Part shown: piece after piece, positions 11,000 through 41,593 of the stretch
Layout: each line of letters begins with the position of its first letter
Position numbering within the stretch: the first letter of the stretch is position 1
NCBI GenBank assembly: GCA_965235115.1
Contig: OZ249436.1
Span: 26,536,001 to 26,600,000 of the forward strand
From: Laetmonice hystrix
Taxonomy: Eukaryota
Direction: 5' to 3'
DNA: 64,000 nt
Program-made: the position numbers and the translations under genes
The notes under the pieces: model-generated
Database searches by the model: none
What the model saw: only the letters and a program-made list of their open reading frames with translations
Told to the model about the DNA's origin: nothing

Positions 11000-12900
11000 A
11001 GTGTTCTAGCGAGATATATGCCACGGAACACTAACCGTACAATGGTAAACGTGTTGTCTATGCCTAATTTAAATTTTCGCGCTAAGAACGATATAGGCTA
11101 ACGGTTACAGCATGTCTGAGAGACTGACAAGCGATAAGATGACCCTGATTGACCCTTACATGGACAGGGCAGAGCTGGGGCATGCAGGGGTGGCTGGCAG
11201 TGGGGTGACGTGGGATGCCGGTTGGGGTTCGGGTGGAGGTGGTGGTGGGGGCGGGGGGAGGTGCAGGGTGTGGAAGTCGGTGTGGTGGGAGTGTGTACAC
11301 CAGGCGCAAAGAAATATAATGTTGCCTATGGTCATTTCGACCAACTCTCAAAGATCATCACTTCTACATAGTAATGACCAGCCCTGATATGTATTGGACT
11401 TCTCCATCGAATTGGTTTATTGGGCACATGAATATGGGTGTCCATCACCATATGCTACAACCCCCGCCCCTCCCCCCGAGTGGCGGATCCAGGGGGGGGG
11501 GGGGGCTTTAACCCCCACTCACAGGGAGCTAATTTCTTCTCAACAGAACTTTCTGAATTGACCATGCTAATCCCCCAGCAAATCCTCCGGGCCTGTGTTG
11601 TATCCTTGGGATAGGGGGATGACCCGGGGATGACAGGTGAAAGCAATTCGGAATTCCATGTTTACAATATGCTTAAACATTTTTACAAATCATTTGAATT
11701 GAACAACACTTTTTAAAAGGTTTCCACGGGATTATCCATCTATATAGGCCCTCGTATAGACTAGCCTGTGTATCATTTATACCATGTTTTCGGCATGACG
11801 ATTAGTTGCCGACATCCCCACTCACTTCCAGGGCAAAATATAGACTAGCTCCCTAAAACACTATCCATTGCATGCAGCCTTTTCCTGCCAAAACCGACTT
11901 CGTATACTAATGAAAAAAGAAATAAAGGACTTCTTTCTTTTCTTTCTTTCCCCCCTCTTTTCGCCAGTGTCTTCGGGTGTTTTTCTGCAGGGAAAATGTC
12001 GTTTGTGCTTCAAGGAGGTGCGTGACATTTTAATGGTTTACAGATAGGACATAAAACAGCTGGGTATAGGGTTAGCGAATGCTCTTATCTGCAGCAACTC
12101 AAGGAACTAATTATCCTTTTCCCGCCAGAACAAACAGCGTGACCTCGGTTACTATAAGGTCACTCCCCTGCTCACACTGTGACTCATCTCACGGTGAATG
12201 AAGTGAGAAAACTCTATTTGCCAACTGAATTGAGTCGTTTGCTAGCATAGTATTACTGGTCAATAATGGTGTATGGTTATGGGCTGTGGGGCATTGGACA
12301 GCTAAAGCATGCCCTTCCAGTTAAGAAATCCTGATATTGTACAGAGGACTTTTTGGATGTCGGGTAAAATAAAGGATTAAGGCGTATGCCACGTACATAC
12401 AGTATTTACATCAAATATTTAACATTGGGAGGCATCAGTCAGAAGCTTTGTGAAATATTGTGATAAATATAAAGTACATGTGATTCTTCAATTCAAGACT
12501 CTCCGTTATACTGACCACTGAGAGGCTGGTTGTGGAGTGTGCAAACATTTGCCGCCGTAACAAATCTAAACTCCAGCGTAATGACCAATTTGCTTTAACG
12601 CCCGACTCACGAGTCGATGGAGTGGGAGTAACTGATCGTTAGGGTAACCATCCTTATGATACATTTTGTTGAGGTCAGGGCACTAAAAATTTCAAGGACT
12701 TTGGGGCATAAATAAATATAATAATTAATAAAGTATTAAACAAATTAAATAAATTATAAAAGGCATGAGATTAGGAGATTTTGTTTAACAGATATAACAG
12801 ACATATATCTTCTTAATATATTCCATTTACTATTTACAGATGACCAGCATCATCGAAGCAAATCATTCATACATTCAACAGGAATGATACAGCCGGCCAC

Positions 12901-15879
12901 ATGTCATCCCGTAAAACAAAGTTGTCGGCTCTCCACGCAGGTGTACGTCGCAAACAAGCGAGGAAATCCTGCCCAGGTTGTGGCGTTTCCTTCAACTCAA
13001 AACATCTCTCTAAACACAAATCAAACAGCTTCGTTAACGGTCAGTGGCTATGCAATAAGGAGGCGAACACAAATGTAGACGACACGCTCTCGGACAATAC
13101 GATCAGTTCTGAAACATCAAGTTCCGAGGAAGATCTTTCTCCACCCAATAGTCCTGATGATCTGAGACGGAATCTTAATAAAGCCATCCAGCACCATGTT
13201 CGTCGGACAATACCTGAGTGTGATCTATATGATGACATAAGTGAACCAATCTGTACTGATGACGAATGTGAGTTATGGGACGACATTGATCTGAGTGAAA
13301 TAGAAGATGACCTAGATGAAGGAAACGAGGCTGCTGGTGAAGATGACCCTACACGCAGACATCAAACTGCAGGGGATGGAGAGATCCTATTATGGCTGTG
13401 CATATTCTTATGTACACTTCAGGCAGCTTTTATTTTGCCTGATGTGGTACTCAACCACATTCTACAGTTTCTACAAGTTTTGTTTTCTGTGACCGGGCAA
13501 AATATTACAGCCTGTGTTACACTTGCAACTGTATTTCCTGGATCTGTATATATGCTGTGGAAGACACTTGGATTTCAGAAAGATAGTTTCCGAAAGTATG
13601 TGGTTTGTGAAAAATGTTTCACGCTATACAAGTACGAAGACTGCATTCAGACTGTACAAGGGAGACAGACATCAGCAAGATGCAACTTTGTTCCATATCC
13701 AAACCATCCACAAAAAGCTAGACGGGCAGAATGTGGCAATTTGCTGTTGAAAAATGTTGAGCTTGCACACGGGACAACAAAGCTCTATCCATTTAAAGTT
13801 TATTCTTATAAGCCAATTGTGGAAAGTCTGGCCCGGTTACTTAAGAGAACTGGCTTTGAAAACCAGTGTGAAGAATGGCGGGCAATTTTGCATACCGAAG
13901 GTGTATACACGGACGTCTATGATGGCGCAGTATGGCAGGAATTCCAAACAGAAAAGTATGGCAATTTCCTGCAGAATCCAAGACACTATGGATTAATGCT
14001 AAATGTAGATTGGTTTCAGCCATTTGATCATGTTTGTTACTCAGTTGGTGTCATATATGCTGTAATATTAAACCTCCCAAGAAGTGAGCGTTTTAAGTTA
14101 AAAAATGTCATTCTTTGTGGCATCATTCCCGACATGGGAAAGGAACCACCACTGCAAACATTCCTTGATCCGTTAGTAGATGAACTACAAAGTGCATGGA
14201 CGGATGGTTTCAAGATACGCACGCACCTGCATCCTGGCAATGATGTTACGGTTAAACTTGCCCTGATGTGTGTAGGTTGTGACATCCCAGCAACAAGGAA
14301 ACTGTGTGGCTTTCTAGGCCACGCAGCAAACTTAGGATGTTCAAAATGCTACAAAGTATTTCCCGGTACCGTCGGAGAAAAGGATTATTCTGGGTTTGAC
14401 CGCGGTAACTGGCCTAAAAGAGACATTGTCCAACATCATGAAAATGTAAAAAAGATATTAAAAACACGCGCAGCAGTTGAAAAGTCTAATATGGAAAGAA
14501 GTCTAGGCGTTCGTTATTCACCATTATTGAAAATGAATTACTTCGATCCTGTTCGCATGGCCACCATAGACCCCATGCACAACATATTTGAAGGCACAGC
14601 GAAACACGTGATAAAGGTATGGGTTAAACACGGGGTAATTGAAGACCGATCGTTTGCAAGGATACAAGAAAACATGGATCGTGTTGATACGCCTAGCAAC
14701 TTGGGCAGGCTGCCGAGGAAGATTGCATCTTCTTTCGGAGGATTTAATGCCGATCAGTGGAAGAACTGGACAAATATCTTCTCTGTTTTCGCCCTTAAAG
14801 GGGAAATTGAAGATAAATATCTCCAAAACTGGAGAAAGTTCGTCTTGGCCTCTAGAATCTTGTGCAGCACCGTCATTACAACTGCAGAAATAAATATGTT
14901 CGACAGTTATATCATGGAATTTTGCAAGGAATTTGAAGAACTCTTCGGGAGAGAACGTATAACTCCAAATATGCACATGCACGGCCATCTTAAATCCTGT
15001 CTACTCGATTATGGGCCAGTTTACGGATTCTGGCTTTTCAGTTTTGAGCGATTTAACGGGCATCTAGGATCAATGCCTAACAATAGCCGTTCTGTGGAAG
15101 TCCAGTTCATGCGCAGATTTTTAAGAGATGCCTTTGTGTTTTCGCTGGACAGACCTCATAGCCACCAAGAAGAATTCAATGAAGTTGTCTCTCGACTACT
15201 TAGTCATGGCCGTGGAACATCAGAAACGGAGACACAATTGTCTTCATCTAGATCTTCTATTCTGTCAATCAGGGATATGTCATCACCAATAAGCTCAGTG
15301 CACGACAAAAATTGGAGTGATATTTCAATGTATGCCTTGAAACAGCGTCGAAAGTGCACACTCGATACTGATCAGCTCTTTTTCTTGAAAAAGATGTATC
15401 TCTACATTTACAATGAAGTTGATGACACAGCAAGTGATTTCACAGTCCCCGTATCATGTTGGCGATGTGAGGCCATATCTGTTGGAAAGGAGGTGTTTGG
15501 CACTGCTACATCAAGATACAGAAGGTCGTCTCTTATAACTGCAAACTGGAATGCTGGCGACGGAAAAATCGTCACTGATGATCATTTGCCCTTATGTCCA
15601 GGAGTAATTGAAAAACTCTTTCTACACAATCTTGTCCGTAATGGTGTAGTTCATAGTCATTTAATTGCACAGGTCAAATGGTATGATTCTATTCCTGAAC
15701 TGAAGAATTATTGTGGACCACCGGTTGAAGTATGGCGGAAAGACTTGTTCGACACATTTGGGGAGTCTACATTTATGCCAGTGCAACGCATATACTGCAA
15801 ATTCGTCCAGTGTGAGGGACTCGTAAGAAACAAGAAAGTTCAGTTTGTGTGTACAGTCGGGCGGGGACTACAGCTTTGA
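12901..15879 (+). CDS. CACTA/EnSpm (Tnp2/Transposase_21-like) DDE transposase, 992 aa, intact
   Basis: Motifs DVYDG, LMLNVDWFQPF (D), ILNLPRSERFK, VGCDIPATRKLCGF (D), GCSKC, IDPMHN, PNMHMHGHL and WLFSFERFNG (E); N-terminal Cys/His clusters; candidate 5'-UTR splice acceptor tatttacag at ~12832-12840. Confidence 0.95.
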   Translation: MSSRKTKLSALHAGVRRKQARKSCPGCGVSFNSKHLSKHKSNSFVNGQWLCNKEANTNVDDTLSDNTISSETSSSEEDLSPPNSPDDLRRNLNKAIQHHVRRTIPECDLYDDISEPICTDDECELWDDIDLSEIEDDLDEGNEAAGEDDPTRRHQTAGDGEILLWLCIFLCTLQAAFILPDVVLNHILQFLQVLFSVTGQNITACVTLATVFPGSVYMLWKTLGFQKDSFRKYVVCEKCFTLYKYEDCIQTVQGRQTSARCNFVPYPNHPQKARRAECGNLLLKNVELAHGTTKLYPFKVYSYKPIVESLARLLKRTGFENQCEEWRAILHTEGVYTDVYDGAVWQEFQTEKYGNFLQNPRHYGLMLNVDWFQPFDHVCYSVGVIYAVILNLPRSERFKLKNVILCGIIPDMGKEPPLQTFLDPLVDELQSAWTDGFKIRTHLHPGNDVTVKLALMCVGCDIPATRKLCGFLGHAANLGCSKCYKVFPGTVGEKDYSGFDRGNWPKRDIVQHHENVKKILKTRAAVEKSNMERSLGVRYSPLLKMNYFDPVRMATIDPMHNIFEGTAKHVIKVWVKHGVIEDRSFARIQENMDRVDTPSNLGRLPRKIASSFGGFNADQWKNWTNIFSVFALKGEIEDKYLQNWRKFVLASRILCSTVITTAEINMFDSYIMEFCKEFEELFGRERITPNMHMHGHLKSCLLDYGPVYGFWLFSFERFNGHLGSMPNNSRSVEVQFMRRFLRDAFVFSLDRPHSHQEEFNEVVSRLLSHGRGTSETETQLSSSRSSILSIRDMSSPISSVHDKNWSDISMYALKQRRKCTLDTDQLFFLKKMYLYIYNEVDDTASDFTVPVSCWRCEAISVGKEVFGTATSRYRRSSLITANWNAGDGKIVTDDHLPLCPGVIEKLFLHNLVRNGVVHSHLIAQVKWYDSIPELKNYCGPPVEVWRKDLFDTFGESTFMPVQRIYCKFVQCEGLVRNKKVQFVCTVGRGLQL

Positions 15880-17840: not shown

Positions 17841-17931
17841 ATATAATTTTTTTTGTATACGCTACTTTTCATGCAGTTATTACGTCTACATGGAAAGATT
17901 AGGGGGAGGTGGGAACGTGCGGTATCATATA

Positions 17932-18180
17932 TCGGGTGGGCAAAACAATTATTTTGGAACACTCTTTTCTTGACTGTAACTTCTATAATTTTTACCCCAA
18001 TGTCATAATTATTTGGACCATGATATCTGCTACTGTGTCTGAATGACGTGACGTCAAATGTATGAAATGCCCCCTGCCAAAAACAGATGATAGCATGTTT
18101 CAAATATTATGACATTGGGGTAAAAATTCTAGAAGTTACAGTCAAGAAAATAGTGTTCCAAAATTTTTAGGCCCACCCGA
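17932..18180. mobile_element. TA-flanked MITE (Tc1/mariner-like), termini TCGGGTGGGC..GCCCACCCGA
   Basis: Long imperfect inverted arms (tggaacactcttttcttgactgtaacttct..ccccaatgtcataat vs attatgacattgggg..agaagttacagtcaagaaaatagtgttcca). The right TA is restored when the LTR element is removed. Confidence 0.8.
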
Positions 18181-18181
18181 T

Positions 18182-19095
18182 TGTATCGGGCCTTTGTTTA
18201 GGGTTTTGCAGTTTAAATAGGTATTCGATGTTGGGGTAGAGCTTTGGCTATTGCGAGAGGGTTTTCCCGATAATGTCTTCTAAACGTAGGGGTAAGCTAG
18301 GCTCTATCGTATGGCTTCGTGAGATGGGGTCCAACTCAGACTGAGGGATGACTAGCGGTCGAAGGTTCAATCATTTATTAAGACAATCCGGATGTAGAGT
18401 TCGTCCGTGTGTAGAGTACAGATATCTCCTCGCGGTAGATGTAAAGTACAAGTGTCTCCTCTGAAGTTGAAGTAAAGTACAAGTGTCTCCTCTGAAGTTG
18501 AAGTAAAGTACAAGTGTGATATTCACATACGCTACAAGTTTTGACTCTCACCTCCCTTTCTCTGAACTCCCCTAGTAGCTGTGATGTGTAATGTCCGAAA
18601 GTCTGAATCCTAAACGTTTCTCAGTAATTCCGAAGAATCTGCAAAGTCTTGTTTCCGTACTGATCTCCTATTGCAAAGGCTGAATGCTGAAAACCTCCCA
18701 AGTGCGGGATGATGAGAAAGCTAAGTGCTGAGCGAGAGAACTCCACGTCTGCTCATCTCCAAGTTAAAACCACATACGACTACTGCAAGGTTGCGCGTCT
18801 ATATATATCTACCAGCTTTTCGGGGGATTTTCTTGGTTCGTGACTAAGCCTGCACTACCTGAACCTATGGAGGGGTTTGGGCTGGTAAGGTGGATGAGTT
18901 ATTGCTTTTCTGCTGTACCTGCTGAACCTTCCTCCTGTAGGCGAATGATTTATGACTCTGTAGTTGTACCTGTTGCCCTTCTGGCTAAGGCTTGCTGTTG
19001 GTTTGGATACTCTAACATAGGAAATTGTGTGACTAGCTAAAACTGATGTATAAAACCGTATTTGTTAAAAGTTACTAGTGGTGTACTCCAACACA
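18182..19095 (-). repeat. 3' LTR (914 bp)
   Basis: No difference from 29368-30281 found by eye. Minus-strand AATAAA at 18374-18379, TATATATA near 18800, internal 31-bp direct repeat (gtaaagtacaagtgtctcctctgaagttgaa) at ~18441-18515. Confidence 0.97.
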
Positions 19096-19113
19096 CCCTC
19101 GCGGTCCCCCTTC
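19096..19113 (-). promoter_or_regulatory. Polypurine tract (GAAGGGGGACCGCGAGGG) abutting the 3' LTR
   Basis: Purine-rich run directly before the LTR TG on the minus strand; imperfect. Confidence 0.7.
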
Positions 19114-19505
19114 AAATAATTTTCGAAGGAAATTATTTGTAATATTAAAATTATGCCCGGGGGCGATTAAAAACTTACATGTTTCTACCTCTCCGGATTG
19201 TGTAAAACCGTAAATACATGACAAAATAGATTACATATGAAATATATGAGAACCTTCATCACTCATCAACAGAAATAAATATACTCGTAACTTCATGCCA
19301 TAGTCTGAGTAAAATGTTCGTGTGTGGAGTAAAATCTCCCACGATGCGTTGCAAATGTTCATAAGAAGGCGTGTACAATTAGCGTCCTTCTGCCTTCACC
19401 GAAACTTCGAAACAGTATGCGTATAAAGCTGAGACTGCCAACATAGCGAATGTCTCTATATAGCAAAGATTAAATGTTCATGAAGAAAAAGAAAGGTGTA
19501 TGTCA

Positions 19506-22178
19506 CTAAGCCTGGGCCGCTTGCGGTGCCGTGGCAGGGACATATGCTTCAGTTTCAAGCGGGTGGTAGCCGTCTTGGGCGGCCAGGCGGGGGTAGAGAG
19601 GGGTCGAGTGCTCCTGGCTTAACCCCACCGGAACATGAGACCATGTCCCCACGTGCCCTGGTGTATCCGTGTTAATGATCGTGGCGAGGCCCTGATCGTA
19701 ACGGAGAAGTCGAACGAGCACCCTGGTAGGGTGGACTGAAGCCAGCGCCAGTGCATGGCGCCTTGGGAGTGAAACTGTCCGTGGTAACGAGAGAACGGTG
19801 CAGCCCTCCGTCTGAACATTCATGTGGTGTTGAACGATTAGTGCTGATGCCCACGTCAAGGTTATTGTAGCTGACAGGCGGTGTAGTTTAACAGCGTAAT
19901 GAGTTAACAGAGGCAAACGAGATAACGTCAATGTCTCTGCAGCAAAGTTCATCATTCCCAATCGAATGGTTAAAAGTTCGGAGCCCGTGTAAACTTGCAG
20001 TGCTAGGCCTGCAGCGGGTTTGTCTCTGGATACATAATAGGCAAAGAGTCCCAGTGAAAACACACACAATACCGTCAGTAAGATGATCAAAGCAAGCGTA
20101 GCGTAGAGAGGTGCGTGTAGATCAGTCATGATGGGCGGTCCCGCTTGTGGGTGGGTAGAGTGGCCCAGCACAACCTCGGCCACCGTGCGCTGCGGCGTTC
20201 CCAGAGCTGCCAAAGCGAGTAATGAAGCCTTGTGTCGTCGTAGCAGAATAATCACCACGATGACGGCGATGGCAATAGCTGGCATAATCCCGATCGGTAT
20301 CCATGATCTGGTGGCGATGTTCGCTTGATTCGCCTCCATAACGCCTAGGTCATCATGAAACAGCGGAGTGTGCTGTTGGCGGGCCTCTTGAAGTTTTTGA
20401 AGAGAGACTTTAAGATTCGACTGGTCACTTTTGAATTTTTCCGCATTAAATGAGTCGTCGGGGGGGATTGGGTCTGGTATCACCCACGGTTCAGGTAACA
20501 TGTGATCGTCGCGATAACCAACTAGCGGTATGCCGATAGCGTTCAAAAGGATAGAGTTAATAGGATATCGGATAGTGGTTTCGAACTGCTGCTTCGGGCA
20601 AGCGGTTAACTGGTACGGTATCCAAGAGTCCGGAGTCCGTAACGCACAGTCGCAACCCAGTGTGATAAGGGCTAATTGCGAAATAGTCTTCGGTTCGACC
20701 GGCCTGTCCCTGCACATCATATCAGCTTTCGTCGAGAGAGAGCTGACGACGGCACGTCCTTTACCGATATAGATGAACCGTTCCTTAAAGGAAGCGTTGA
20801 CAATGTATGTTGTGCGGCAGATTCGAGAAATGTCTTTAGCGTCGTTTCGATATAGTGCTGTTATGCAAGAGTCCGATGACATGTACTGCATATACCACAT
20901 GTTAGGGCATGTTTGAATTTCGTCTCCAGTACAGTCTTGCCAATCGTGATCGGAAAGTGGTATGAGAAATTGTTTATCAATCGAAACCGCGACTTCGTTC
21001 GGTAACCCTGTAATGAGCGTAGCATCGACTCGCGTCTTGTTAATGACGTGTATCGGAATAGGTAACGCGTGTACGTGATAGATTCGAAACAAATGCTGCT
21101 GAGCCGTGATGGGTATTCGTATGAGAATGTCTAGTCTCCTGCCCTGTCTCGAAAACACGGGGTTCGCATTATCGTAGTAATAAGCTGTTGATGTGAACGC
21201 TAGATTATGGTGCGGGTAATTCTCTTGAAGGAAAACTGAAATGTTAGTTAGTGCTTGTTCGAGCGCGTGGTGCGGCACCAAGTTTGATGAAAGTTCGCCC
21301 CTGGTTAGGTCTCGAATTCCATCGAGGAATTTAACTGATTCTGTTAACATAGAGACAGCAGACAGTGTCATAGCCTGAACTCTGCCTGATAATGTGTAGA
21401 ATAACATCTGTAAATGGCGTGAAATCGTTTCATTGCGTTGCATGCCCCTCACGGCATGAGCCATTAGATTAACATAGCGCGTCACGTTACTGATACGATA
21501 GTGACTATTTAAAAGAGCTTCTACCACACGATCAATCCTATCGTTAGTGACGTTTACCATATGTACAGTATTTACATGTTTAGCATCTTGCTTCGCGCTG
21601 AAGCTGTGAAGCTGGCGCGATAGGGTGGCCATCGCCCTCGCGTTCTTGAGGATATCCTTATTGCGGCCTGTGCCAAATAAATAGTAGCTGATTGTTGATA
21701 CAATCTCGAACGGTGCTCGCGGGTGACGTCTGGCTGACCATTCGTCTTTGGGAAGCAGGCTTAGGGCCGCTTCCAGATTACCGCGGACCTGGCGTAAGGT
21801 TTCGTTCAAACCCCGTCGAACTGTGTTAATGTACATGATGAGCATGTCGTACTGCAGATGACGGTCATTAGTCGCCGGGTGTGAAGCTCGCATCGGAGCG
21901 CGTGCAGCTGTTGGATAAACATCCAACAGGCTGGTCAGAGGTGCTAAATGTACAGGGGGTATGTCGACATGAAAAACCTGGTATATCCAAGCATCTTTAG
22001 CAGTCGAGATCAACTTTGAAGGCTGGAGCACAACCCCATAATTGAGTCGTAACTCTGTCTCATCTAAGAAATTAAGTTGAATAGTGTTTTGGGGTGTTAG
22101 GACCAGTGTCCAAACAACGAGGAATATAATGTTAGAGATCCGCATCTTGACCCTCACTTCCGTACTGTCTGTGAGCAT
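19506..22178 (-). CDS. env: Envelope glycoprotein of errantivirus/baculovirus-F type (class I fusion-like), 890 aa
   Basis: Signal peptide MRISNIIFLVVWTLVL; LRLNYGVV; furin-type RRHPR (21717-21731) followed by the fusion-peptide-like APFEIVSTISYYLFGTG; helical region with N-glycosylation sites; Cys-rich region; TM WIPIGIMPAIAIAVIVVIILL. Confidence 0.88.
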   Translation of the reverse strand: MLTDSTEVRVKMRISNIIFLVVWTLVLTPQNTIQLNFLDETELRLNYGVVLQPSKLISTAKDAWIYQVFHVDIPPVHLAPLTSLLDVYPTAARAPMRASHPATNDRHLQYDMLIMYINTVRRGLNETLRQVRGNLEAALSLLPKDEWSARRHPRAPFEIVSTISYYLFGTGRNKDILKNARAMATLSRQLHSFSAKQDAKHVNTVHMVNVTNDRIDRVVEALLNSHYRISNVTRYVNLMAHAVRGMQRNETISRHLQMLFYTLSGRVQAMTLSAVSMLTESVKFLDGIRDLTRGELSSNLVPHHALEQALTNISVFLQENYPHHNLAFTSTAYYYDNANPVFSRQGRRLDILIRIPITAQQHLFRIYHVHALPIPIHVINKTRVDATLITGLPNEVAVSIDKQFLIPLSDHDWQDCTGDEIQTCPNMWYMQYMSSDSCITALYRNDAKDISRICRTTYIVNASFKERFIYIGKGRAVVSSLSTKADMMCRDRPVEPKTISQLALITLGCDCALRTPDSWIPYQLTACPKQQFETTIRYPINSILLNAIGIPLVGYRDDHMLPEPWVIPDPIPPDDSFNAEKFKSDQSNLKVSLQKLQEARQQHTPLFHDDLGVMEANQANIATRSWIPIGIMPAIAIAVIVVIILLRRHKASLLALAALGTPQRTVAEVVLGHSTHPQAGPPIMTDLHAPLYATLALIILLTVLCVFSLGLFAYYVSRDKPAAGLALQVYTGSELLTIRLGMMNFAAETLTLSRLPLLTHYAVKLHRLSATITLTWASALIVQHHMNVQTEGCTVLSLPRTVSLPRRHALALASVHPTRVLVRLLRYDQGLATIINTDTPGHVGTWSHVPVGLSQEHSTPLYPRLAAQDGYHPLETEAYVPATAPQAAQA

Positions 22179-22831
22179 GGCCGGGCGTATACCTCAAATA
22201 CACCACGACTCCGTGGCCCAGGAATTACGTATCAGCTATAGCGGGACAGAGCCCGGACGATGCATTCAACTTATGATGTGTGTCCCTTACCCCTGGGAGG
22301 GGGAGGTGGCCGCGGTGGCTGTGCCCCTGGAGGCGGCGTCCCGGGGCCTAATCGTGGGCCTGCGGGAGGCCGCCGAGAGGCAGGCTTCTCCCCTCCCAGG
22401 CGCCGGCCGAGGGCAGCAGCGGGCGGCCGCTCCCTGTGCGGCGGGCGGCCCTGGCGACTCTCCCCCGGTGGTGCGGCCCTGGGCGCCGCCGGCCCGGGCG
22501 GGACAGGACCCTCCCCTCTGGGCTCCCGGCGCGGGCGGGGAGAGCGGTGAGGCGAGGGCGGCGCCGGCGTCTCCGTCGCCTCCCGACGGCGGGCCTCTGG
22601 AGGGGCTGGAGGGACTTGAGGGACTTCTGTCCCTCAGTCCCGGGCAACAAGCGAAGTGGGCCCGCTGGGCCAGCGGGGACCTGTAACGGTAAGTGTTACT
22701 TCTTCTTCCGACCGGGCTCACTCCCTTCAAGGACAGCAACTGTAAACCGGTTGTCTGGTGTAATGGAAAAACGAAACAAAAATTCCGAATTTCGAAAAGA
22801 TATTGAAAGTCAATTAATTCACAAGAGCGTG

Positions 22832-25800
22832 TTACTGCAAAGCCACGTCTGGGTCGAAGTCCGGATGAAAATCAGTTCGTTTGACCCACGACGTAATTTT
22901 CCTGTCTCCAGACCACTGGACTAAATAAGTCCAAACTCCTGACTTGAGTTTGCGTCTCTTAAGGATTCTGTCTATTGACCAGTAGGTGTCCTGAGTTGCT
23001 GGAGTGAGTGCGGTGTTATCTACTGTTATGTCATCATCGATGTGCTCCGGTGCCTGGTCGGAGTGATGACTGTTGTCCGGCTGTTGTTCCCCTGTGTTAT
23101 GTACCTGTGCGGGGTCGCCTAGTACAGGCGCCCATGATATGTGAGCTACCTTAATTTTGTTCACATTGTAATAGTGATCTAAGACCTTACCCGTTGAAAT
23201 CGACTGTAGTTTTACCATGTGATCGTCTTTCATGTCTATCACCCTGTATGGTCCTTTGTATTTAGGACTGAATTTTGAAACCCTGTTTGCTGCACAAGTG
23301 GGGTCGTATAAATAGACGCAGTCGCCTACTGTAATTGCTGCTGGGCGTGCTTTCACGTCCAACTTGTCGCGCATATCTCTCTCGTACGATTCTGTAACCG
23401 TGGTCGCCATTTGCTTGATTAGCTCGATTCTCGCGAAAATATCGGCAAAATGTGTATTTAAATCGGAATTTGTTTCCTGCGATCCATCCTCTAATGATGG
23501 CATATTCATCGGCATCGGGTCTCTACCGAAGAGTAGTGTAAACGGAGCAAAACCTGTCCTCGCGCTGATGGCTGAACGAACCGTCCATAACGCGATGGGT
23601 ATCAGCTGTGGCCATTTCGTGTGCGTCTCGTTAATGTAACAAGCCATAACGTCCTCTAGCGTGCGATGTAACCTTTCTACACGCGCATTGCCGGTCGGGT
23701 TTCTTGCGCTTGTGAACGACTGACGACAACCCACACGAGTGGTAACCTCTCTTAGGAGAGCAGATAGAAATGATTGACCCCTATCACTGTGTAATCTCTC
23801 AACTTTGCCATATCGACAAACGATTTTTGACAAGAAAACGTCTGCGACTGTTTTTGCTGTTTGATCCTCTGTGGGATAGGCTTCGGGCCATCCGGTATGG
23901 AGGTCAATGAAGGTTATTATATAACGCAGACCGTTGACTACCTTTAAAGGTCCGATGAAGTCGGTCTGTACCCATTGAAAAGGGTAATGTGGTTTGTCCC
24001 ACGATTTAGCGAGCGCCTGGGGGTGCGGCGATCGTTTTCTTAGCACGCAGACACTACATTGCTGAACGTAGCGAGCGATATCTGCCATATAACCTGGCCA
24101 ATAAAATTTGGACATAACTTTATCCATGACGGCTGACCGTCCAACATGTCCTCCGGCCAATACATCGTTATGTAATAGATAGAGTACTGACTCTCGTAAT
24201 TTAGCTGGAACCACGATTCTCGGTTCGATTTTTGTAACTGCTTTGCTAGCATGCCTAATTTTCGGAAAATGACATAGAACTCCCGGAGGTACCATGTCCA
24301 TGAATTCTGCTGTTGCTACTATCTTCGACGCCTTTCGAAGATCGTCTGGCAGTGTGCCATCCGAAATATAATCGATTAATGCTCGGCATTCACCGTCTGA
24401 ACGTTGTTCCTGCATGATACGGTCAACTGTTAGGTCGATGCGTGCGCCTTGAGAGTCGCCTTTCTGGCCGTTGCTAGGGGGAGCGACCCCCACCGTCTCT
24501 TTCTGGCCAATTTCTCGGGACCGGTCCTTCGTTCGTTTCTTATCAGAAATAGAACAACTCATCATGGCCGACGCGCCGTCATGCCCATGTTCAGCGTGTG
24601 CCTTACAATTAATAACGTCCCCTACGATGGGGTCTAGAGCGCTACACGGAGTAGCGTCCTCGCCTGGGCGGCGGAGCCGTACGCCACTGACTGTTGCAGT
24701 GGGACCGCTATGCGCATTAGCGGATGAGCCTGTAGAGGCTTGAAACCTCGCACTGTCTGCTGCAGTGGAGTCGCCTGCGGAGGGCGGAGTGTCGCCTGCG
24801 GAGGGCGGAGTGTCGCCTGCGGAGGGCGGAGTGTCGCCTGCGGAGGGCGGAGTGTCGCCTGCGGAGGGCGAAAATAGGCCTGTGTAACCACGTGCTGTGG
24901 CTAATATCTCACTGACTGGTGCAGTGGCATCACCTGAGAAGGCGGGAATAATCTCACTGACTGTGGCAGTGGTACCACCTGAGGAGGCGGGAATTGTAAC
25001 ACCGACTGTTGCGGTGGCATCGTCTGTGGATGCGTGAAGTGCCTCGCCTGTTAGGGCGGCTGGTGCTTCGCCTATTAGGGCTGAAGTTAAATCTATTTGT
25101 GCAACGTTGCGTGCTTGTCCTGACTGTGTGTAACACTCATCACCGATCTCTGGTTCGCATGCCGTGCTCGGGGCCGGCCCTGTCTGTACTCGAGATAGGA
25201 AATCGGCTAAGTAATGAGTTTTACCTGGTTCATATTGAAAATCGATGTCGAAGCCCGTAATGAACAAGGCCCATCGAGTCAACCTGCTTGTCGGCGCTTT
25301 CTGCGCGTTCGACAGTAGGGTGAGTAGTGGCTTATGATCGGTAACCACTATAATGCGCATGCCATCTAGGATGTCCTGAAAATGTTGTAGCGCACGTATT
25401 ACAGACAGTGCTTCTTTCTCAGACACTGTATAATTCATTTCGGCGGAAGACATTGTGCATCCCCAAAAGGAGATAGGCCGGTAAATTTGACCTGATAAGT
25501 GACAAAGTGCAGCGCCGCATGCACTCGAAGAGCTGTCCGTCAGCAGGTAAAATGTCTGATTGAAATCGGGGTGTACTAGAATCGGCGGTGATGTAAGTGC
25601 TGCTTTTAAAGATTCGAAAGCGTCCTGTTGTGGCTTGCCCCACTGAAATTTAGCTTCTTTCTTAAGCAATTCGTAAAGCGGTGCTGCTAAGTTCGGAAAT
25701 CTCGGAATAAATATTCTGTAATAGGAGCAAAGTCCTAAGAATGCTCTCACCGTCCTAACGCTTCTGGGTCTCTCAAAATGATCTACTTTCGATAAAATTC

Positions 25801-27319
25801 TCTGTTGCGCCGAGATACCTTTATCAGATAGAACAAACCCTAAGAAGTCTACTTCGGATCTACACCATTCGCATTTCTCAGGCTTAAGAGTTAATGATGC
25901 GCGTATCAAAGCTTTCAAAATTTGGTCAACGTTACTCAAATGAGTATCAAAGTTCGGATCTGACGCGAGGAGATCGTCCATGTACGATACGCAAACTCGC
26001 GGTACGAGGCCTTTCAGCGCTAGCGACATTACTTTTGAGAATGCCCATGGAGCTCCAACGAGTCCCATTGGAATTTTCTTGTATTGCAAGACTCCTTCGA
26101 TCGGTGCTTCGAAAGCGGTGCATTTTCTCGAGGATTCATCTATAGAACACTGAAAAAATCCCGAGCGCAGATCTAATTTGCTATGAAAACGAGGCTTTTT
26201 CGCGGCAATTAGTGAAAATAGTGAGCGCGCCACGGGCATGGGAAATTTTCGCTTCATCGTTATCTTGTTTAACCGCCTAAAATCGGTGCATAGGCGTAGT
26301 CCACCATCCTTTTTCTTCACTACGACCAGCGGACTTCTCCAAACTGAGTCTGATGGTTCGATAACATCTGCCTTTAAAAGTTCTCCAATGTGTTCTTGAA
26401 TGCGTGTAATTTGATTAGGACCGTACCTGTATGGTGCCGTTGTGACGGGCTGGGCGTTCGGCTCGACTTCTATTGACATAGGTGCCAAGTCGCACGAGCC
26501 AAGCTCCTGGAGTGAATCCGCAAAAGCTAGTCTGTTTGATTCCAGCATGTCACGAAATTGTTCCTTTTGACTGTCGGTAATATCCGAGTGTTCCAAATCA
26601 AATGATATGGGTTCCCTGGGCGTTTCCCGAGATTCCATCGCTGATACCTGCTTGTAATTGGTAGGAAGGTGCGGGTCGTCCCGTGAAGGAGCAAAATCTC
26701 TGTCCGCGTATGCCGTCACTGTAGATGGAGTGATGGTGATAACTTCATCCGTGGGGTTCAGAACAGATACAAAAACTCCTCCATTACCAACAACGTCAAC
26801 TGACTTGCCTGCGATAAACGCATCTGGTCCCGTCTGTGTGGGGGTGATATATACCTCCGTCCCATCAGGTACGTCCCGAGAAATGGAGCAAAACATAATG
26901 ACTTCCGAAAAAGGTGGCAAATGAACTTTCCCAACCGTGTGCACTGTGATGCTGTCCCATAGAGTCACGTGTGCTCTATCGAAATCCACTGAAGCCCTCG
27001 TTGCAATTAGAAAGTCTCGACCTAAAATAACATCCTGTGTGAGGTTGTCTATCACCGTAAACTCGAAACAGATGGTAAATGTATCAAGCTGGAAGCGTAA
27101 GCAAACTACTGTACTTGCCATGGCTGTGCTGCCGTCAGCTAGTGTTACCGAGTCATTAACAGATCGTGTTTCAAGCACCAGATCAGCTGGTACTCGCGAG
27201 AGCGCTGTATGTGAGATATATGTGTGGCTGGCGCACGTGTCGACTGCTGCCCACATGCGGTGATCTGTGAACTGAATTTGTAGAAGGGGTGGTAGAGATA
27301 TATGTTTCTTGAATGGCAT
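22832..27319 (-). CDS. pol: Pol polyprotein: protease, RT, RNase H, integrase, C-terminal chromodomain; probably made as Gag-Pol by -1 frameshift
   Basis: AVDTCAS (PR); LCTDFRRLN, LDLRSGFFQ, PMGL, YMDDLL (RT); TDSS, EKEAL, TDHKPL (RH); HHCC finger, TDFIGP, SDRG, VERLHRTL, KYKGPY (IN); YWSIDRILKRR..YLVQWSG..SWV (chromo). Confidence 0.97.
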   Translation of the reverse strand: MPFKKHISLPPLLQIQFTDHRMWAAVDTCASHTYISHTALSRVPADLVLETRSVNDSVTLADGSTAMASTVVCLRFQLDTFTICFEFTVIDNLTQDVILGRDFLIATRASVDFDRAHVTLWDSITVHTVGKVHLPPFSEVIMFCSISRDVPDGTEVYITPTQTGPDAFIAGKSVDVVGNGGVFVSVLNPTDEVITITPSTVTAYADRDFAPSRDDPHLPTNYKQVSAMESRETPREPISFDLEHSDITDSQKEQFRDMLESNRLAFADSLQELGSCDLAPMSIEVEPNAQPVTTAPYRYGPNQITRIQEHIGELLKADVIEPSDSVWRSPLVVVKKKDGGLRLCTDFRRLNKITMKRKFPMPVARSLFSLIAAKKPRFHSKLDLRSGFFQCSIDESSRKCTAFEAPIEGVLQYKKIPMGLVGAPWAFSKVMSLALKGLVPRVCVSYMDDLLASDPNFDTHLSNVDQILKALIRASLTLKPEKCEWCRSEVDFLGFVLSDKGISAQQRILSKVDHFERPRSVRTVRAFLGLCSYYRIFIPRFPNLAAPLYELLKKEAKFQWGKPQQDAFESLKAALTSPPILVHPDFNQTFYLLTDSSSSACGAALCHLSGQIYRPISFWGCTMSSAEMNYTVSEKEALSVIRALQHFQDILDGMRIIVVTDHKPLLTLLSNAQKAPTSRLTRWALFITGFDIDFQYEPGKTHYLADFLSRVQTGPAPSTACEPEIGDECYTQSGQARNVAQIDLTSALIGEAPAALTGEALHASTDDATATVGVTIPASSGGTTATVSEIIPAFSGDATAPVSEILATARGYTGLFSPSAGDTPPSAGDTPPSAGDTPPSAGDTPPSAGDSTAADSARFQASTGSSANAHSGPTATVSGVRLRRPGEDATPCSALDPIVGDVINCKAHAEHGHDGASAMMSCSISDKKRTKDRSREIGQKETVGVAPPSNGQKGDSQGARIDLTVDRIMQEQRSDGECRALIDYISDGTLPDDLRKASKIVATAEFMDMVPPGVLCHFPKIRHASKAVTKIEPRIVVPAKLRESVLYLLHNDVLAGGHVGRSAVMDKVMSKFYWPGYMADIARYVQQCSVCVLRKRSPHPQALAKSWDKPHYPFQWVQTDFIGPLKVVNGLRYIITFIDLHTGWPEAYPTEDQTAKTVADVFLSKIVCRYGKVERLHSDRGQSFLSALLREVTTRVGCRQSFTSARNPTGNARVERLHRTLEDVMACYINETHTKWPQLIPIALWTVRSAISARTGFAPFTLLFGRDPMPMNMPSLEDGSQETNSDLNTHFADIFARIELIKQMATTVTESYERDMRDKLDVKARPAAITVGDCVYLYDPTCAANRVSKFSPKYKGPYRVIDMKDDHMVKLQSISTGKVLDHYYNVNKIKVAHISWAPVLGDPAQVHNTGEQQPDNSHHSDQAPEHIDDDITVDNTALTPATQDTYWSIDRILKRRKLKSGVWTYLVQWSGDRKITSWVKRTDFHPDFDPDVALQ
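24770..24870 (-). repeat. 21-bp in-frame tandem repeat (PSAGDTP; four full copies plus one partial) in the RNase H-integrase linker
   Basis: gtcgcctgcggagggcggagt repeated from 24770 with period 21. Confidence 0.95.
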
Positions 27320-27334
27320 TACAATCGAATTATC

Positions 27335-27394
27335 GTCCCTCTGACAGAGTGCTAATACCTTGGTGACTGTCGAGGGACACGCTGGGCGTTTCCC
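27335..27394 (-). promoter_or_regulatory. -1 programmed ribosomal frameshift signal (G GGA AAC plus hairpin)
   Basis: Slippery heptamer at 27388-27394 in gag-frame register; 9-nt spacer; stem GTCCCTC-GACAG / CTGTC-A-GAGGGAC. Pol is in the -1 frame and open across the site. Confidence 0.85.
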
Positions 27395-28566
27395 TGGTCC
27401 TGATATGTAATTTGAGAATGGTCGTCAGGTTGAAATCTGGCCTTGGCCCCAATTAAATGGTTCGGCTGGTCAGTGAGGTGACGGGCGCCGCGTCTGGCGG
27501 TGTTCTGTAACCATCGGCACGCGTCAGTGGAGTGGCCGCGGGACTTGTGATAAGCGCAGTATGGGCTGCCGTCCTCCGGGGGGGTGTTTTGCTGGGTCGC
27601 GCTGCTTCCCTTCTCCCTCCACTGAGGAGCGTTGCCATACCTTCCCCTATAGCCTCGTCTGTCCCATTGCTGTTGGCCCTGGTGTTGATTTCCTGAGCCT
27701 CGCGCCTGGGATCTCTCGATTCTGGCGAGTGCCGCTAAAATGTTATCATAACGGCCTAGTGGTGCTGACTCCGTTGCGGCGCATGATTTCGTCTGCGGGC
27801 CTACCGTTTCCAGGCGGGAAGCCATCTCGACTGCCTCGGCGAATGTTGATGGGTTCTGTACTGCCAAAAGGTTACTGAGAGACGGTTCCAAACCTCCGAT
27901 AAAGACCGATGTAAGAATTTGATCAGTGACGTCATAGTTGCGCTGTTTGTGTCGGAGCGTTCCCGCGAAATCGAGAGCTGTCTGACCTTTCTGTTGCTTT
28001 AAGCCGAAAAGATCCCTGTGCTTTTGCCAAGTGGGCCGTTTGTCTCTGAAAATGTCAATCATATGGGACTTGAAAGCTGAATAAGATGCCGTTGCCGTGG
28101 CGTCCAATGCTCTCATCCAGTCAGCTGCTCTGTCTTTGAGACCATGCAGTGCCATTGCTAGGGTGTGATCATCTGGCCATCCGTAGATGCGCGCCAAACT
28201 CTCTGTTTCATCAAAATATGTTCGAATGTTTTCATTGGCAGATCCTGAAAATGTTGGCAAATGTAGAGTGGGTAGTTTATGGTAGGGTAGCCTCCCTACA
28301 TCGCTTCTAGTTACCGAGCTTCCCGCCGTATCTTCGTCACGATGGGCTTGAATTTCCCCGTTCACATTGTTACCTTGTCCGTCACCGTCGGGGTGTGGGT
28401 TTGGAGGGGGAATCTGGATCGGACCTACTTGCTGGGCGTCCGGCAGTGGTGGCTGCTGAGGCCCTGGTTGCAGTGGCTGTAGAGCCCCTGGCTGTGGTGG
28501 CTGTGGAACCCCTGGCTGTGGTGGCTGCGGAGCCGGCTGCTGCGGGGCGGCATCGTCCCCGTTCAT
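27352..28566 (-). CDS. gag: Gag, 404 aa (P/Q-rich N-terminus, capsid domain, CHHC zinc knuckle)
   Basis: LPTFSG..E..W capsid start, LKQQKGQT..F major-homology-like region, FIGGL, C-x2-H-x4-H-x4-C (CAYHKSRGHSTDAC). Confidence 0.93.
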   Translation of the reverse strand: MNGDDAAPQQPAPQPPQPGVPQPPQPGALQPLQPGPQQPPLPDAQQVGPIQIPPPNPHPDGDGQGNNVNGEIQAHRDEDTAGSSVTRSDVGRLPYHKLPTLHLPTFSGSANENIRTYFDETESLARIYGWPDDHTLAMALHGLKDRAADWMRALDATATASYSAFKSHMIDIFRDKRPTWQKHRDLFGLKQQKGQTALDFAGTLRHKQRNYDVTDQILTSVFIGGLEPSLSNLLAVQNPSTFAEAVEMASRLETVGPQTKSCAATESAPLGRYDNILAALARIERSQARGSGNQHQGQQQWDRRGYRGRYGNAPQWREKGSSATQQNTPPEDGSPYCAYHKSRGHSTDACRWLQNTARRGARHLTDQPNHLIGAKARFQPDDHSQITYQDQGNAQRVPRQSPRY

Positions 28567-29160
28567 GTCGATGTCTTGTTGTTGAAGCCGAAATGGTTGC
28601 CGGAGATCTGGAGGCGCGTCTGGTATGTGGTGTGCTTGGGAGAGATTAAAACGCGCCTTACCACTATCACCGGCTGTAGAGTTCCCGCTCGCAGAAAGTT
28701 GATGGTCTTCCTGTAAATCTGTTATGTTGAAGGAGTGTCCCTCGATTACTATGCGATTGTTGCCTTGTAATTCGACCGGTTGAAAATCAGGTGCTGACCG
28801 TAGTTGTCTTTTCTTCCAGAGAGACGAGGAGGTAGAGGCGTGACCGGGCGTCGCCAGCCTTGGCGCGGGGGGCGACGCGTGCCGCGGGCTCCGGTCGGAC
28901 TGGGCGAGGGGGGTCGGGCGCCACCGGCTCCCCTCTTTGTAAAATAAATTTTAAAACGTACCCGAAAGTCGTTTCGTCAGTCTCTGTAGAGTAGTCCAAT
29001 CAGAAACATCTCGCCATACTTGAGTTTTATGAGGTAATGTTCTCCACCGTAGTTATCCTGTAGTTCAAGCTCCCCGTGAAGGTATCTGCAACGTTGGGCT
29101 TTTCCACAGGTGTTCCGTATAGTTTGCTGTAGTTGGGCTGTCCACTAAGTAGTTCGTGGT

Positions 29161-29371
29161 TCCTCCCGTGGTGTTCCGCCGTTTGGATTCTCCACGAAGT
29201 GTATCCTCCCTTAGCGTCCGCCGTTTGGATTCTCCACCAAGTGTTTCCTCCCGTAGCGTCCGCCGTTTGGATTCTCCACCAAGGGTTTCCTCCGGTAGCG
29301 TCCGCCGTTTGGATTCTCCACCAAGTGTTTCCTCCGGTAGCGTCCGCCGTTTGGATTCTCCACCAAGTGTA
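29161..29371 (-). repeat. Five tandem 42-43-bp units, each carrying an LTR-end mimic plus a primer-binding site (TGGTGGAGAAT, tRNA-Ala-like)
   Basis: Units start at 29161, 29204, 29246, 29288 and 29330. Minus-strand consensus: (T/A)ACA-CT-TGGTGGAGAATCCAAACGGCGGACGCTA..GGAGGA. The LTR-adjacent unit overlaps the real LTR end. Confidence 0.93.
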
Positions 29372-30281
29372 TCGGGCCTTTGTTTAGGGTTTTGCAGTTT
29401 AAATAGGTATTCGATGTTGGGGTAGAGCTTTGGCTATTGCGAGAGGGTTTTCCCGATAATGTCTTCTAAACGTAGGGGTAAGCTAGGCTCTATCGTATGG
29501 CTTCGTGAGATGGGGTCCAACTCAGACTGAGGGATGACTAGCGGTCGAAGGTTCAATCATTTATTAAGACAATCCGGATGTAGAGTTCGTCCGTGTGTAG
29601 AGTACAGATATCTCCTCGCGGTAGATGTAAAGTACAAGTGTCTCCTCTGAAGTTGAAGTAAAGTACAAGTGTCTCCTCTGAAGTTGAAGTAAAGTACAAG
29701 TGTGATATTCACATACGCTACAAGTTTTGACTCTCACCTCCCTTTCTCTGAACTCCCCTAGTAGCTGTGATGTGTAATGTCCGAAAGTCTGAATCCTAAA
29801 CGTTTCTCAGTAATTCCGAAGAATCTGCAAAGTCTTGTTTCCGTACTGATCTCCTATTGCAAAGGCTGAATGCTGAAAACCTCCCAAGTGCGGGATGATG
29901 AGAAAGCTAAGTGCTGAGCGAGAGAACTCCACGTCTGCTCATCTCCAAGTTAAAACCACATACGACTACTGCAAGGTTGCGCGTCTATATATATCTACCA
30001 GCTTTTCGGGGGATTTTCTTGGTTCGTGACTAAGCCTGCACTACCTGAACCTATGGAGGGGTTTGGGCTGGTAAGGTGGATGAGTTATTGCTTTTCTGCT
30101 GTACCTGCTGAACCTTCCTCCTGTAGGCGAATGATTTATGACTCTGTAGTTGTACCTGTTGCCCTTCTGGCTAAGGCTTGCTGTTGGTTTGGATACTCTA
30201 ACATAGGAAATTGTGTGACTAGCTAAAACTGATGTATAAAACCGTATTTGTTAAAAGTTACTAGTGGTGTACTCCAACACA
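29368..30281 (-). repeat. 5' LTR (914 bp)
   Basis: Matches 18182-19095; the ORF track gives identical 66-aa translations at 18840 and 30026. Confidence 0.97.
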
Positions 30282-30766
30282 CGATATACCGCACATTCCA
30301 GGTGAACGATCATAAAGTGCTCACCTAAAAAGTTCTAGTAGTCGATGGAGTTCACAAATTGTATATAATGCATGTCTAGATCAACTTGTATATGTATATT
30401 AATCTAAAAGGGTCAAATGTATTTCAATTGACTTGGGGATGTACTGGAGAGTATATATCGCACGTTCCTTAATTGGCTAAAAATCAAAGAAAATATTTAA
30501 ATAAGAGCATAGCATGATGAGAAATACACAGTTAGATGTGCCTATGAGTACCCTTAATTTACATAAAAAATATAAGGGAAGTGCAACTGAGTGATAATTT
30601 TTTTTGATTTTCTTATACCCTTGTATTTCTTCTTATTTTTTTTTATCATTGTTCTAATGTCTTTTTTTCTGTTTATGTGACAATGCGAAGAAAATTCACG
30701 CCGAGTCCCAACGGGAGTGGCTGGAAAAATGGAAACGGGAAATGGGGGAGAAAGAATGGTTGGCAT

Positions 30767-38889: not shown

Positions 38890-39348
38890 CCTCTTGTAAG
38901 TGTATATATGATCGTCGTCACAGACGACCCCACCTTTCACCGACTTGGGCCGAGTCTGCATTCGACGGAGGCGTTCGACGAATCGATTGTACCGAATCGA
39001 TGTTGGTCGGGACGCGGAAGTGCTGCCTGATGGGAAGAGGCTAAATCTCATAGCTGGAATCCAGGGTGTGACGTCATTAGAGCTATGTAGGTCAGGGAAT
39101 ACCCTGCTCTGGCTGCCAGCAAAATATGGATTCACCACCTATAGCCTAACCGGAACGGACCCTAACTCGCACAAGGAGGTACGCATGTAGGCATATATAC
39201 CTCGTCGCCTGTTAACTTTGGCCTCTATTCTTGAAAGCGGTATTCTGGAGGGCTCTGCACAGTTCTAAAGAGGAATTCTACGGGTCTAAGACGATATGCA
39301 TTCAGGCCTGGAGACCGGAGTAGTACACTTTCAGCGGCGGAGTTGGGG

Positions 39349-40640
39349 ACCAGGATTCAGGCAGGCTTGGTCACCTATCATCACCAATACCCGAGGCCTG
39401 GGCACCTTATAGGTGGAAGTAGGCCCATATGGGACCTGGATTCAGGGCTTGGTCACCTATATTGACCAACACCCGAGGCCTGGGCACCTTATAGGTGGGA
39501 GTCTATCCATTATATGGGACCTGGATTCAGGGCTTGGTCACCTATATTGACCAACACCCGAGGCCTGGGCACCTTATAGGTGGGAGTCTATCCATTATAT
39601 GGGACCAGGATTCAGGGCTTGGTCACCTATATCGACCAACACCCCAGCCCTGTTCACCTTATAGGTGGGAGTCTATCCATTATATGGGACCTGGATTCAG
39701 GGCTTGGTCACCTATATTGACCAACACCCGAGGCCTGGGCACCTAGCTTATAGGTGGGAGTCTATCCATTATATGGGACCAGGATTCAGGGCTTGGTCAC
39801 CTATATCGACCAACACCCCAGCCCTGTTCACCTTAGGCCAAAAAAAAAAAAAGTTTCGTTTCTTGTCCTTTCATATAAAAAAAGTGGTGCGGTGACGCGG
39901 TTTTTTTTTTTTCATCTTTCTTTTTTTTTTTTGGATGCAACTAGACAACGGCCGATTCTTCGAATGCAATTGCTGTTGGGTACATAAATCTTGAAGAAAA
40001 GACTAATGCAATGATGTTCAATGTTTTAGAATGTGTAAAACGCACATAAAATCAACAAGACTAACAGAAAAACGCCAACGCCAAAGAACCGTTGCAACGT
40101 TCTGTCACAGCGCTACACTGCCCACCATATGAAGCAGTCGGATTTGAAAAAAAAAGACTTGACGCGGGGGTTTTTAGGTGACGCGCGCGGGGACAAGAAA
40201 CGAATCTTTTTTTTTTTTTGGCCTTATATAGGTGGGAGTCTATCCATTATATATATGGGACCTGGATTCAGGGCTTGGTCACCTATATCGACCAACACCC
40301 CAGCCCTGTTCACCTTATAGGTGGGAGTCTATCCATTATATGGGACCTGGATTCAGGGCTTGGTCACCTATATTGACCAACACCCGAGGCCTGGGCACCT
40401 TTAATAGGTAGGAGTAGGCCTATCTGGGACCAGGATTCAGGGCTTGGTCACCTATATTGACCAACACCCGAGGCCTGGGCACCTTTAATAGGTAGGAGTA
40501 GGCCTATCTGGGACCAGGATTCAGGGCTTGGTCACCTATAACATCATCAATACCCGAGGCCTGGGCACCTTATAGGTGGGAGTCTATCCATTATGGGACC
40601 AGGATTCAGGGATTGGTCACCTATATCGACCAATACCCAT
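39349..40640 (+). repeat. Tandem array of an ~85-bp unit (left arm of the foldback element)
   Basis: ataggtgggagtctatccattatatgggacctggattcagggcttggtcacctatattgaccaacacccgaggcctgggcacctt, period 85 (39491, 39576); two subunit variants (GAGGCCTGGGC vs CAGCCCTGTT). Confidence 0.93.
39836..40223. mobile_element. PIF/Harbinger-type MITE nested in the 85-bp array
   Basis: Termini GGCCAAAAAAA..TTTTTTGGCC, subterminal cgtttcttgtcc/ggacaagaaacg, 3-bp TTA TSD (39833-39835, 40224-40226). Confidence 0.85.
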
Positions 40641-41084
40641 GCAAGGGCTTCCCTTTTAATACCAGCAAAGTACATTGTGACCTAGTTTCTGTGTGGCATC
40701 AACTGAAATAAAACATGTACTGAAATAAAACTGTGTAACTCTGTTCGTTTTTAGTAGTTGCATGGTTCAATAATGATCCTGTCCATTTGTCCCCTTTAAA
40801 CCCATGGCGGACCCCCTGATGGTCATGATATTAAGTATTAAGTTTACTTTTCATGGCCATATCCTGTATTATTATATGCCTTAAATAGAACATAATAGTT
40901 TATGTTCTGACTTTAAAATATCTGAGTTACTTTCGTTGCTCATTTAAAGCGCATGAATATATGTACTACAGCTGATGACCCCACTGATGGTCATGCTCCA
41001 TGAAATAAAACATGTATGCCTACTGAAATAAAAACTGTGTAACTGTGTTCGTGTTTTGTTCCTACTCAGCTAAATCGACCAATA

Positions 41085-41593
41085 CCTGAGGCCTACTCCC
41101 ACCTATAAGGTGCCCAGGCCTCGGGTATTGGTCGATATAGGTGACCAAGCCCTGAATCCTGGTCCCATAATGGATAGACTCCCACCTATAAGGTGAACAG
41201 GGCTGGGGTGTTGGTCGATATAGGTGACCAAGCCCTGAATCCAGGTCCCATATAATGGATAGACTCCCACCTATAAGGTGAACAGGGCTGGGGTGTTGGT
41301 CGATATAGGTGACCAAGCCCTGAATCCAGGTCCCATATAATGGATCTAGACTCCCACCTATAAGGTGAACAGGGCTGGGGTGTTGGTCGATATCTAGGTG
41401 ACCAAGCCCTGAATCCAGGTCCCATAATGGATAGACTCCCACCTATAAGGTGAACAGAACTGGGGTGTTGGTCGATATAGGTGACCAAGCCCTGAATCCT
41501 GGTCCCATGGCATATAATGGATAGACTCCCACCTACAAGGTGACTAGGCCTCGGGTATTGGTCGATTTAGCTGACCAAGTCCTGAATCCTGGC
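41085..41593 (-). repeat. Inverted tandem array of the same ~85-bp unit (right arm)
   Basis: Reverse-complement copies; the ORF track shows the same cycling peptides on the minus strand (41062-41488). Confidence 0.93.

Follow-up and report, generated by a model that had tools for sequence, protein, structure and literature searches.

An intact Ty3/gypsy element with three open frames

Analysis of a 64,000-nt stretch of the Laetmonice hystrix genome (GCA_965235115.1, contig OZ249436.1, positions 26,536,001 to 26,600,000; hereafter the window) uncovered a complete Gypsy element on the minus strand at 18182-30281, delimited by long terminal repeats (LTRs), a target site duplication (TSD) and the reading frames between them. 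The LTRs (3′ LTR 18182-19095, 5′ LTR 29368-30281, both on the minus strand) run from TG to CA. By eye they had shown no difference in the initial annotation, and exact comparison of the two 914-bp repeats yields 0 mismatches. The 4-bp TSD is intact as described, with CGAT on the left (18178-18181) and on the right (30282-30285). A purine-rich tract adjoining the 3′ LTR (19096-19113, minus strand) is the likely PPT, judging from its sequence and from a junction shared with other copies.

All three frames reported at the outset are open. The gag frame (27352-28950, minus strand), which carries a Pfam Retrotrans_gag domain, spans 532 aa from stop to stop and 404 aa from its first methionine at 28566. 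The 128 codons upstream of that methionine (28950-28566) are open here and in several close copies, and gag may start at a non-AUG codon. The pol frame (27424-22832) is open over 1530 aa and encodes protease, reverse transcriptase (RT), RNase H, a low-complexity spacer, an integrase with zinc finger, core and GPY/F-SH3 domain, and a chromodomain. This PR-RT-RH-IN order between LTRs, recovered with Pfam, bears out the original assignment to Ty3/gypsy. The catalytic motifs DTCA, YMDD, those of RNase H and D,D35E are all present, and Pfam detects a single RNase H. The spacer of about 220 aa between RNase H and integrase (24749-25130) contains 21-nt and 45-nt tandem repeats, is poorly conserved (9-23%) and is missing from some sister families. 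The env frame (22193-19506) measures 895 aa from stop to stop and 879 aa from the methionine at 22145 (19506-22145, minus strand), and is separated from pol by a GC-rich (65%) spacer (22146-22831) that is partially deleted in several copies. Carrying env, the element is an errantivirus in the operational sense of an env-bearing Ty3/gypsy element (PMC13524379).

Pol lies in the −1 frame relative to gag, and the overlap contains the heptamer GGGAAAC in the right phase (27394-27388) followed by a stem of −19 kcal/mol, which together form a predicted −1 frameshift signal (27333-27394, minus strand). The heptamer is in frame and followed by a similar stem in all seven sister loci examined. The first primer-binding sequence (29365-29353, 13 nt), of tRNA-Ala type, is separated by 2 nt from the 5′ LTR. 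It recurs in five tandem 42-nt units (29175-29367, minus strand), four times perfectly and once with a mismatch, and two to five such units are present in 9/9 other copies examined. Pattern searches of the host genome found no tRNA-Ala gene matching the primer site, and a narrow literature search found no paper on repeated primer sites.

The element is inserted in one arm of the inverted repeat of an AT-rich, high-depth, MITE-like repeat, found at 17900-17945 and at the joined site 18165-18181/30286-30300, whose second arm occupies about 17908-17941; another partial copy, the third, is located near 30455. Elsewhere, the window contains a 1011-aa open frame with a Transposase_21 domain of CACTA/EnSpm type (12844-15879, plus strand) and a LINE whose endonuclease and RT are split over two frames (59306-63272, minus strand), a copy of which on C19 is 100% identical in the RT stretch. 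An array of 85-nt units in two inverted blocks, together with a 57-nt minisatellite, occupies 39341-41592 and 47190-48116.

A divergent chromodomain closes the integrase

The last 50 aa of Pol (aa 1481-1530; 22984-22835, minus strand), running to the pol stop, had been noted as chromodomain-like. The Pfam Chromo profile alone scores this tail at 16.3 bits (E 0.0092), below its cut-off of 25.1, while 16/18 sequence matches in the PDB are chromodomains (best CDYL2, E 3.7e-4) and 28/30 matches in the ESM Atlas carry Pfam Chromo (top score 0.95, 211 shared features). The identification of an integrase chromodomain is upheld by these matches. A search of the genome returned 61 chromodomain matches, among them diverged families at 47-69% identity; of 14 examined, 12 terminate a pol frame, and env-homologous frames follow downstream in 11.

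The domain is 47-68% identical to those of six sister loci, compared with 4-21% for the adjoining linker. Over five pairs its pN/pS is 0.19-0.38, against 0.57-0.87 for the linker, and thus close to the 0.15-0.24 of the integrase core, all values being uncorrected and synonymous sites saturated. The methyl-lysine cage of retrotransposon chromodomains is formed by Y24, W45 and Y48; group I domains have all three aromatics, and group II domains lack the first and usually the third (PMC3350952). Aligned on CDYL2, the corresponding residues of the window element are W, W and D, so that it lacks the full set of three aromatics of the classical group I. In 7/7 aligned sequences from this genome the first two positions hold aromatics (W, W), and position 3 is non-aromatic, of D/G type, in all seven. 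Judged from sequence comparison, the Pol tail is a real, divergent and non-classical chromodomain that is kept by selection.

Insertion follows a palindromic DNA motif

The family offers 13 independent TSD sites, which share C, A and T at positions −4 to −2 (10, 13 and 10 of 13) and A, T and G at +2 to +4 (9, 10 and 8 of 13). Scored against CAT-N6-ATG they reach 60/78, compared with a null mean of 20.6 and maximum of 42 over 20,000 draws, and nine solo LTRs examined after the motif was first noticed give 44/54 matches. Insertion follows this palindromic motif, which explains local site choice. According to PMC3276498, LTR elements as a rule have palindromic target motifs that extend past the TSD; the type of feature is therefore known, while CAT-N6-ATG is absent among the Drosophila motifs given there.

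The density of other Gypsy integrases around insertions was used as a crude proxy for chromatin context. Within 1 Mb, their mean number is 1.15 for the 13 family sites and 0.94 for 16 sister sites; for controls it is 1.20 (65 long-ORF Gypsy elements, drawn from the top 150 of 1,319 candidates regardless of chromodomain status) and 0.67 (51 long-ORF LINEs). None of the differences between family or sister and control sites is significant at this small sample size and low power, and the test neither supports nor excludes chromatin targeting.

These observations bear on whether the domain reads methyl-lysine in the classical way and directs insertions to heterochromatin, as has been demonstrated for MAGGY. 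The two conserved cage aromatics in 7/7 sequences, the CDYL, CBX and HP1 readers among the best PDB matches and the purifying selection on the domain would suit such a reader, and such steering would suit the three family insertions that share 1 Mb of C1 and the many degenerate copies at C11:27.6-27.75 Mb. Against it, the third cage position is never aromatic, and neighbour counts at family and sister sites do not differ significantly from those at Gypsy or LINE sites. We regard the classical reader as possible but doubtful. The chromatin-targeted integration originally proposed for this element finds no support, given the missing third aromatic, a DNA motif that accounts for local choice and no added concentration in Gypsy-dense regions in a test of low power. 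We retain the reading of a selected, non-classical chromodomain.

The env frame encodes an F-type glycoprotein with an extension

Env alone matches no Pfam fusion family and no PDB entry, and a word-index search with it gave no match among 7,999 candidates, a blank that reflects low sensitivity since 1,253 homologues emerged from a full scan with HMMER. A profile of 120 sequences, which includes 119 of the 150 homologues listed out of the 1,253, matches the PDB entries 9w4d/9w4c ("fusion protein") at E 3.5e-17, and Baculo_F is matched by 14/36 members of the closer env alignment (best 6.4e-16). A single-sequence model was unusable (pLDDT 32.9); an alignment-based model reached pLDDT 82.6 and pTM 0.73. 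The latter matches RSV/hMPV F in structure (best E 2.6e-9, TM about 0.3), as well as the F protein of baculoviruses, chu-like glycoproteins and a protein from an abalone herpesvirus. Hydropathy indicates a signal-like N-terminus and a transmembrane segment at aa 616-634, and a furin-type RHPR motif at aa 140-143 precedes a hydrophobic, fusion-peptide-like stretch. By hydropathy and motif, the signal peptide, furin site, fusion peptide and membrane anchor by which errantivirus Env proteins are recognised are all present. Homologue profiles and the predicted fold establish Env as F-type with a modelled class I F ectodomain, in line with the initial annotation; its start, splicing and cleavage are putative.

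The second-best structural match to Env is A0A145VUZ2 (BFVD; E 2.3e-21), an uncharacterised 801-aa abalone herpesvirus protein. This modelled likeness possibly stems from F-like genes having been exchanged between retroelements and viruses of molluscs.

Env might be a mere passenger, in an element that moves only inside germ cells and makes no use of Env between cells. The full-length env in 7/16 closest copies, pN/pS of 0.28-0.41 across three sister families, and the cleavage site and fusion-peptide-like stretch found by pattern search in the window and in 2/3 full-length sisters all speak against this, and we consider it unlikely.

Beyond the F anchor, Env continues for aa 635-879 (19509-20243, minus strand), and its topology was read by eye and from hydropathy. 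The anchor is followed by RRHK and a short hydrophobic run; some 30 residues further on come a second transmembrane segment (aa 684-702) and then a domain about 140 aa long. The hydrophobic run ends at a small-x-Ala site, which is Ala-x-Ala in the six closest aligned relatives. The domain (aa ~706-845) is conserved across five sister loci and in seven proteins from the database, and pN/pS across the extension (0.17-0.47) is on a par with that of the ectodomain (0.28-0.41). With E below 1e-50, a profile of the extension matches 8 of the 150 env homologues listed, and six of these eight fed the profile directly or via a cluster member; weaker matches may stem from the transmembrane segments. Searches of Pfam, the Atlas and the PDB gave no match, and the domain belongs to no family known to them. 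A PLYPRL sequence in the Env tail was considered as a late domain and dropped, its loose pattern occurring in only 17/97 long homologues.

This layout predicts a second membrane protein with its own internal signal after the F anchor, and we infer from it signal cleavage and a matrix-like role. We tentatively propose that the env frame may encode a polyprotein from which an internal signal peptide would release a small membrane protein, whose cytosolic domain of about 140 aa could assist F in budding or in a matrix-like role. A narrow literature search found no paper on a matrix-like errantivirus Env polyprotein. If true, the Env polyprotein, taken with the two-aromatic chromodomain and the CAT-N6-ATG motif, would point to an overlooked fourth functional product in these invertebrate errantiviruses.

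Probable placement among chromodomain-bearing errantiviruses

The initial annotation assumed that errantiviruses with an F-type env lack chromodomains. Chary and Hayashi (eLife 2026; PMC13524379) scored 28 of 139 errantiviruses as chromodomain-positive, and all ten positives looked up in their table are ENV_F, which overturns that assumption. In their data the domain is present in every member of one clade of errantiviruses from cnidarians, molluscs and annelids, and in scattered outliers, with a patchy distribution in some clades; the chromodomain clade, recognised by RNase H and a "mini" domain in the bridge region, is placed basal to chromoviruses (PMC13524379). The element had also been put forward as a potentially infectious lineage, by implication a new one, unless a described clade already had both features. 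Such a group is published (PMC13524379), so the pairing is not novel and, as far as the combination of features goes, the claim falls.

The primer sequence GGATTCTCCA occurs in six rows of the table in PMC13524379, typed tRNA-Ala, all ENV_F and two chromodomain-positive; the four rows looked up belong to RT clades J/K, together with mollusc positives. An RT-RH tree built by a quick method with SH-aLRT support only, which comprises 81 rows after short coverage excluded 5 of 85 candidates, groups the window element with five sister families (SH-aLRT 99), within a long-branch clade of 27 rows (SH-aLRT 100) that includes P0193 and 20 database proteins. The tree contains no named chromovirus references and leaves deep nodes open. 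Chromodomain-like tails are present in 7/27 rows of the clade, namely six from this genome and P0193 (E 5e-7), so the domain is patchy in the element's lineage. The 20 database relatives lack the tail, although at least three end early and may be truncated. Since all members of the published main clade carry the domain, the element may instead represent one of the published outlier lineages. Exact membership of the published clade is suggested indirectly, by primer type and host group. For the host HSP70, the best full-length matches with a named source come from annelids, molluscs, a brachiopod and a nemertean (77-79% identity), which points to Lophotrochozoa; unnamed matches are closer, and the highest bit scores belong to longer proteins of lower identity.

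A chromovirus proper, of the Tf1/MAGGY/Sushi lineage, that captured an F env would constitute a new chimeric lineage. A real chromodomain at the chromovirus position and the basal placement of the published clade relative to chromoviruses (PMC13524379) fit this origin. The database proteins with precomputed Pfam Chromo (P0261 and P0264) fall outside the element's long-branch clade in the quick tree without named references, the 4-bp TSD and tRNA-Ala primer differ from the 5 bp and tRNA-Met reported for plant chromoviruses, and the feature combination is already published; we therefore judge a chimera very unlikely. We are confident that the element is a very recent, intact Ty3/gypsy element with an F env and a chromodomain, and likely a new family of the "ancient" chromodomain F-env errantiviruses.

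Copies and recent movement

Ten other copies were examined in the genome. Among seven other complete LTR pairs, three are identical, one has a single mismatch and three have 2-6, and a matching 4-bp TSD is present in three and absent in three of the six other copies with both ends intact. Twenty further LTR loci comprise ten solo LTRs with a 4-bp TSD (nine independent), five ends of other copies, four loci with unmatched flanks and one truncated, giving the family 13 independent 4-bp TSDs. The solo LTRs at C21:16647367 and C21:16659356 (L096 and L097) share the same flanks 12 kb apart, a local duplication that was counted once. Pol is open for more than 1,400 aa in 6/17 closest matches. Dense nests of degenerate and tandem family copies lie at C11:27.63-27.75 Mb and C11:23.04-23.12 Mb, resembling piRNA-cluster or heterochromatin graveyards.

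The window copy is intact and very recently inserted. That its LTRs are identical through gene conversion or assembly, as copy C11a (identical LTRs, unmatched flanks) and the three of six copies without a matching TSD might suggest, is hardly credible for a copy with a perfect TSD, three open frames and an LTR about 1% different from the next closest. Its early description as apparently active thus stands as a very recent insertion, on the identical LTRs and TSD, and reaches that far only.

Proposed life cycle and significance

In the proposed cycle, the 5′ LTR would drive genomic RNA, Gag-Pol would arise by −1 frameshifting at GGGAAAC, and tRNA-Ala would prime reverse transcription. Integrase would then cut with a 4-bp stagger at sites like CAT-N6-ATG. 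During integration the chromodomain probably touches chromatin or nucleic acid, its ligand being putative, as is any influence of the domain on the choice of site. Env, probably translated from a subgenomic RNA and cleaved by furin, would let particles pass between host cells, as in Drosophila errantiviruses.

With this element, the group published in 2026 gains one family that is young and well preserved. It also provides a test case, as a target motif can be read from many dated insertions, and the main text of PMC13524379 does not describe targeting for the group. The divergent cage poses a clean question of what the chromodomain binds, and in the Env extension enveloped retrotransposons may have a component that was overlooked.

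Comparison with known systems

Published chromodomain errantiviruses come from Cnidaria, Mollusca, Annelida, Nemertea and Hemichordata (e.g., Aint_1, Cgra_1, Mare_1 and Gmag_4) and belong to RT clades J/K (PMC13524379). The element shares with them the LTR-gag-pol-env-LTR layout, three open frames and an F-type Env with furin site (PMC13524379), as well as the post-integrase chromodomain, tRNA-Ala primer site, near-identical copies and similar size. The main text of PMC13524379, which deals with Env ectodomains, does not cover the target motif, the frameshift signal, the tandem repetition of the primer site or the extension of Env. The likeness to these elements is drawn from described features and table rows.

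The Drosophila errantiviruses (gypsy, ZAM, Idefix) are not known to carry a chromodomain, and a pseudo-RNase H bridge is found in most insect elements. Shared with the Drosophila elements are an F-type env as third gene, a 4-bp TSD and a palindromic target motif (PMC3276498). Their TATA/ATAT motifs lie inside the TSD (PMC3276498), whereas here the information lies outside it, as CAT...ATG.

Chromoviruses (MAGGY, Tf1, Sushi and the plant Tekay/Reina/Galadriel elements) share the chromodomain at the integrase C-terminus. To our knowledge they lack env. In the quick tree, the RT of the element groups apart from the Chromo-annotated database proteins. Its cage, with positions 1 and 2 kept and position 3 lost, fits neither group I nor group II (PMC3350952).
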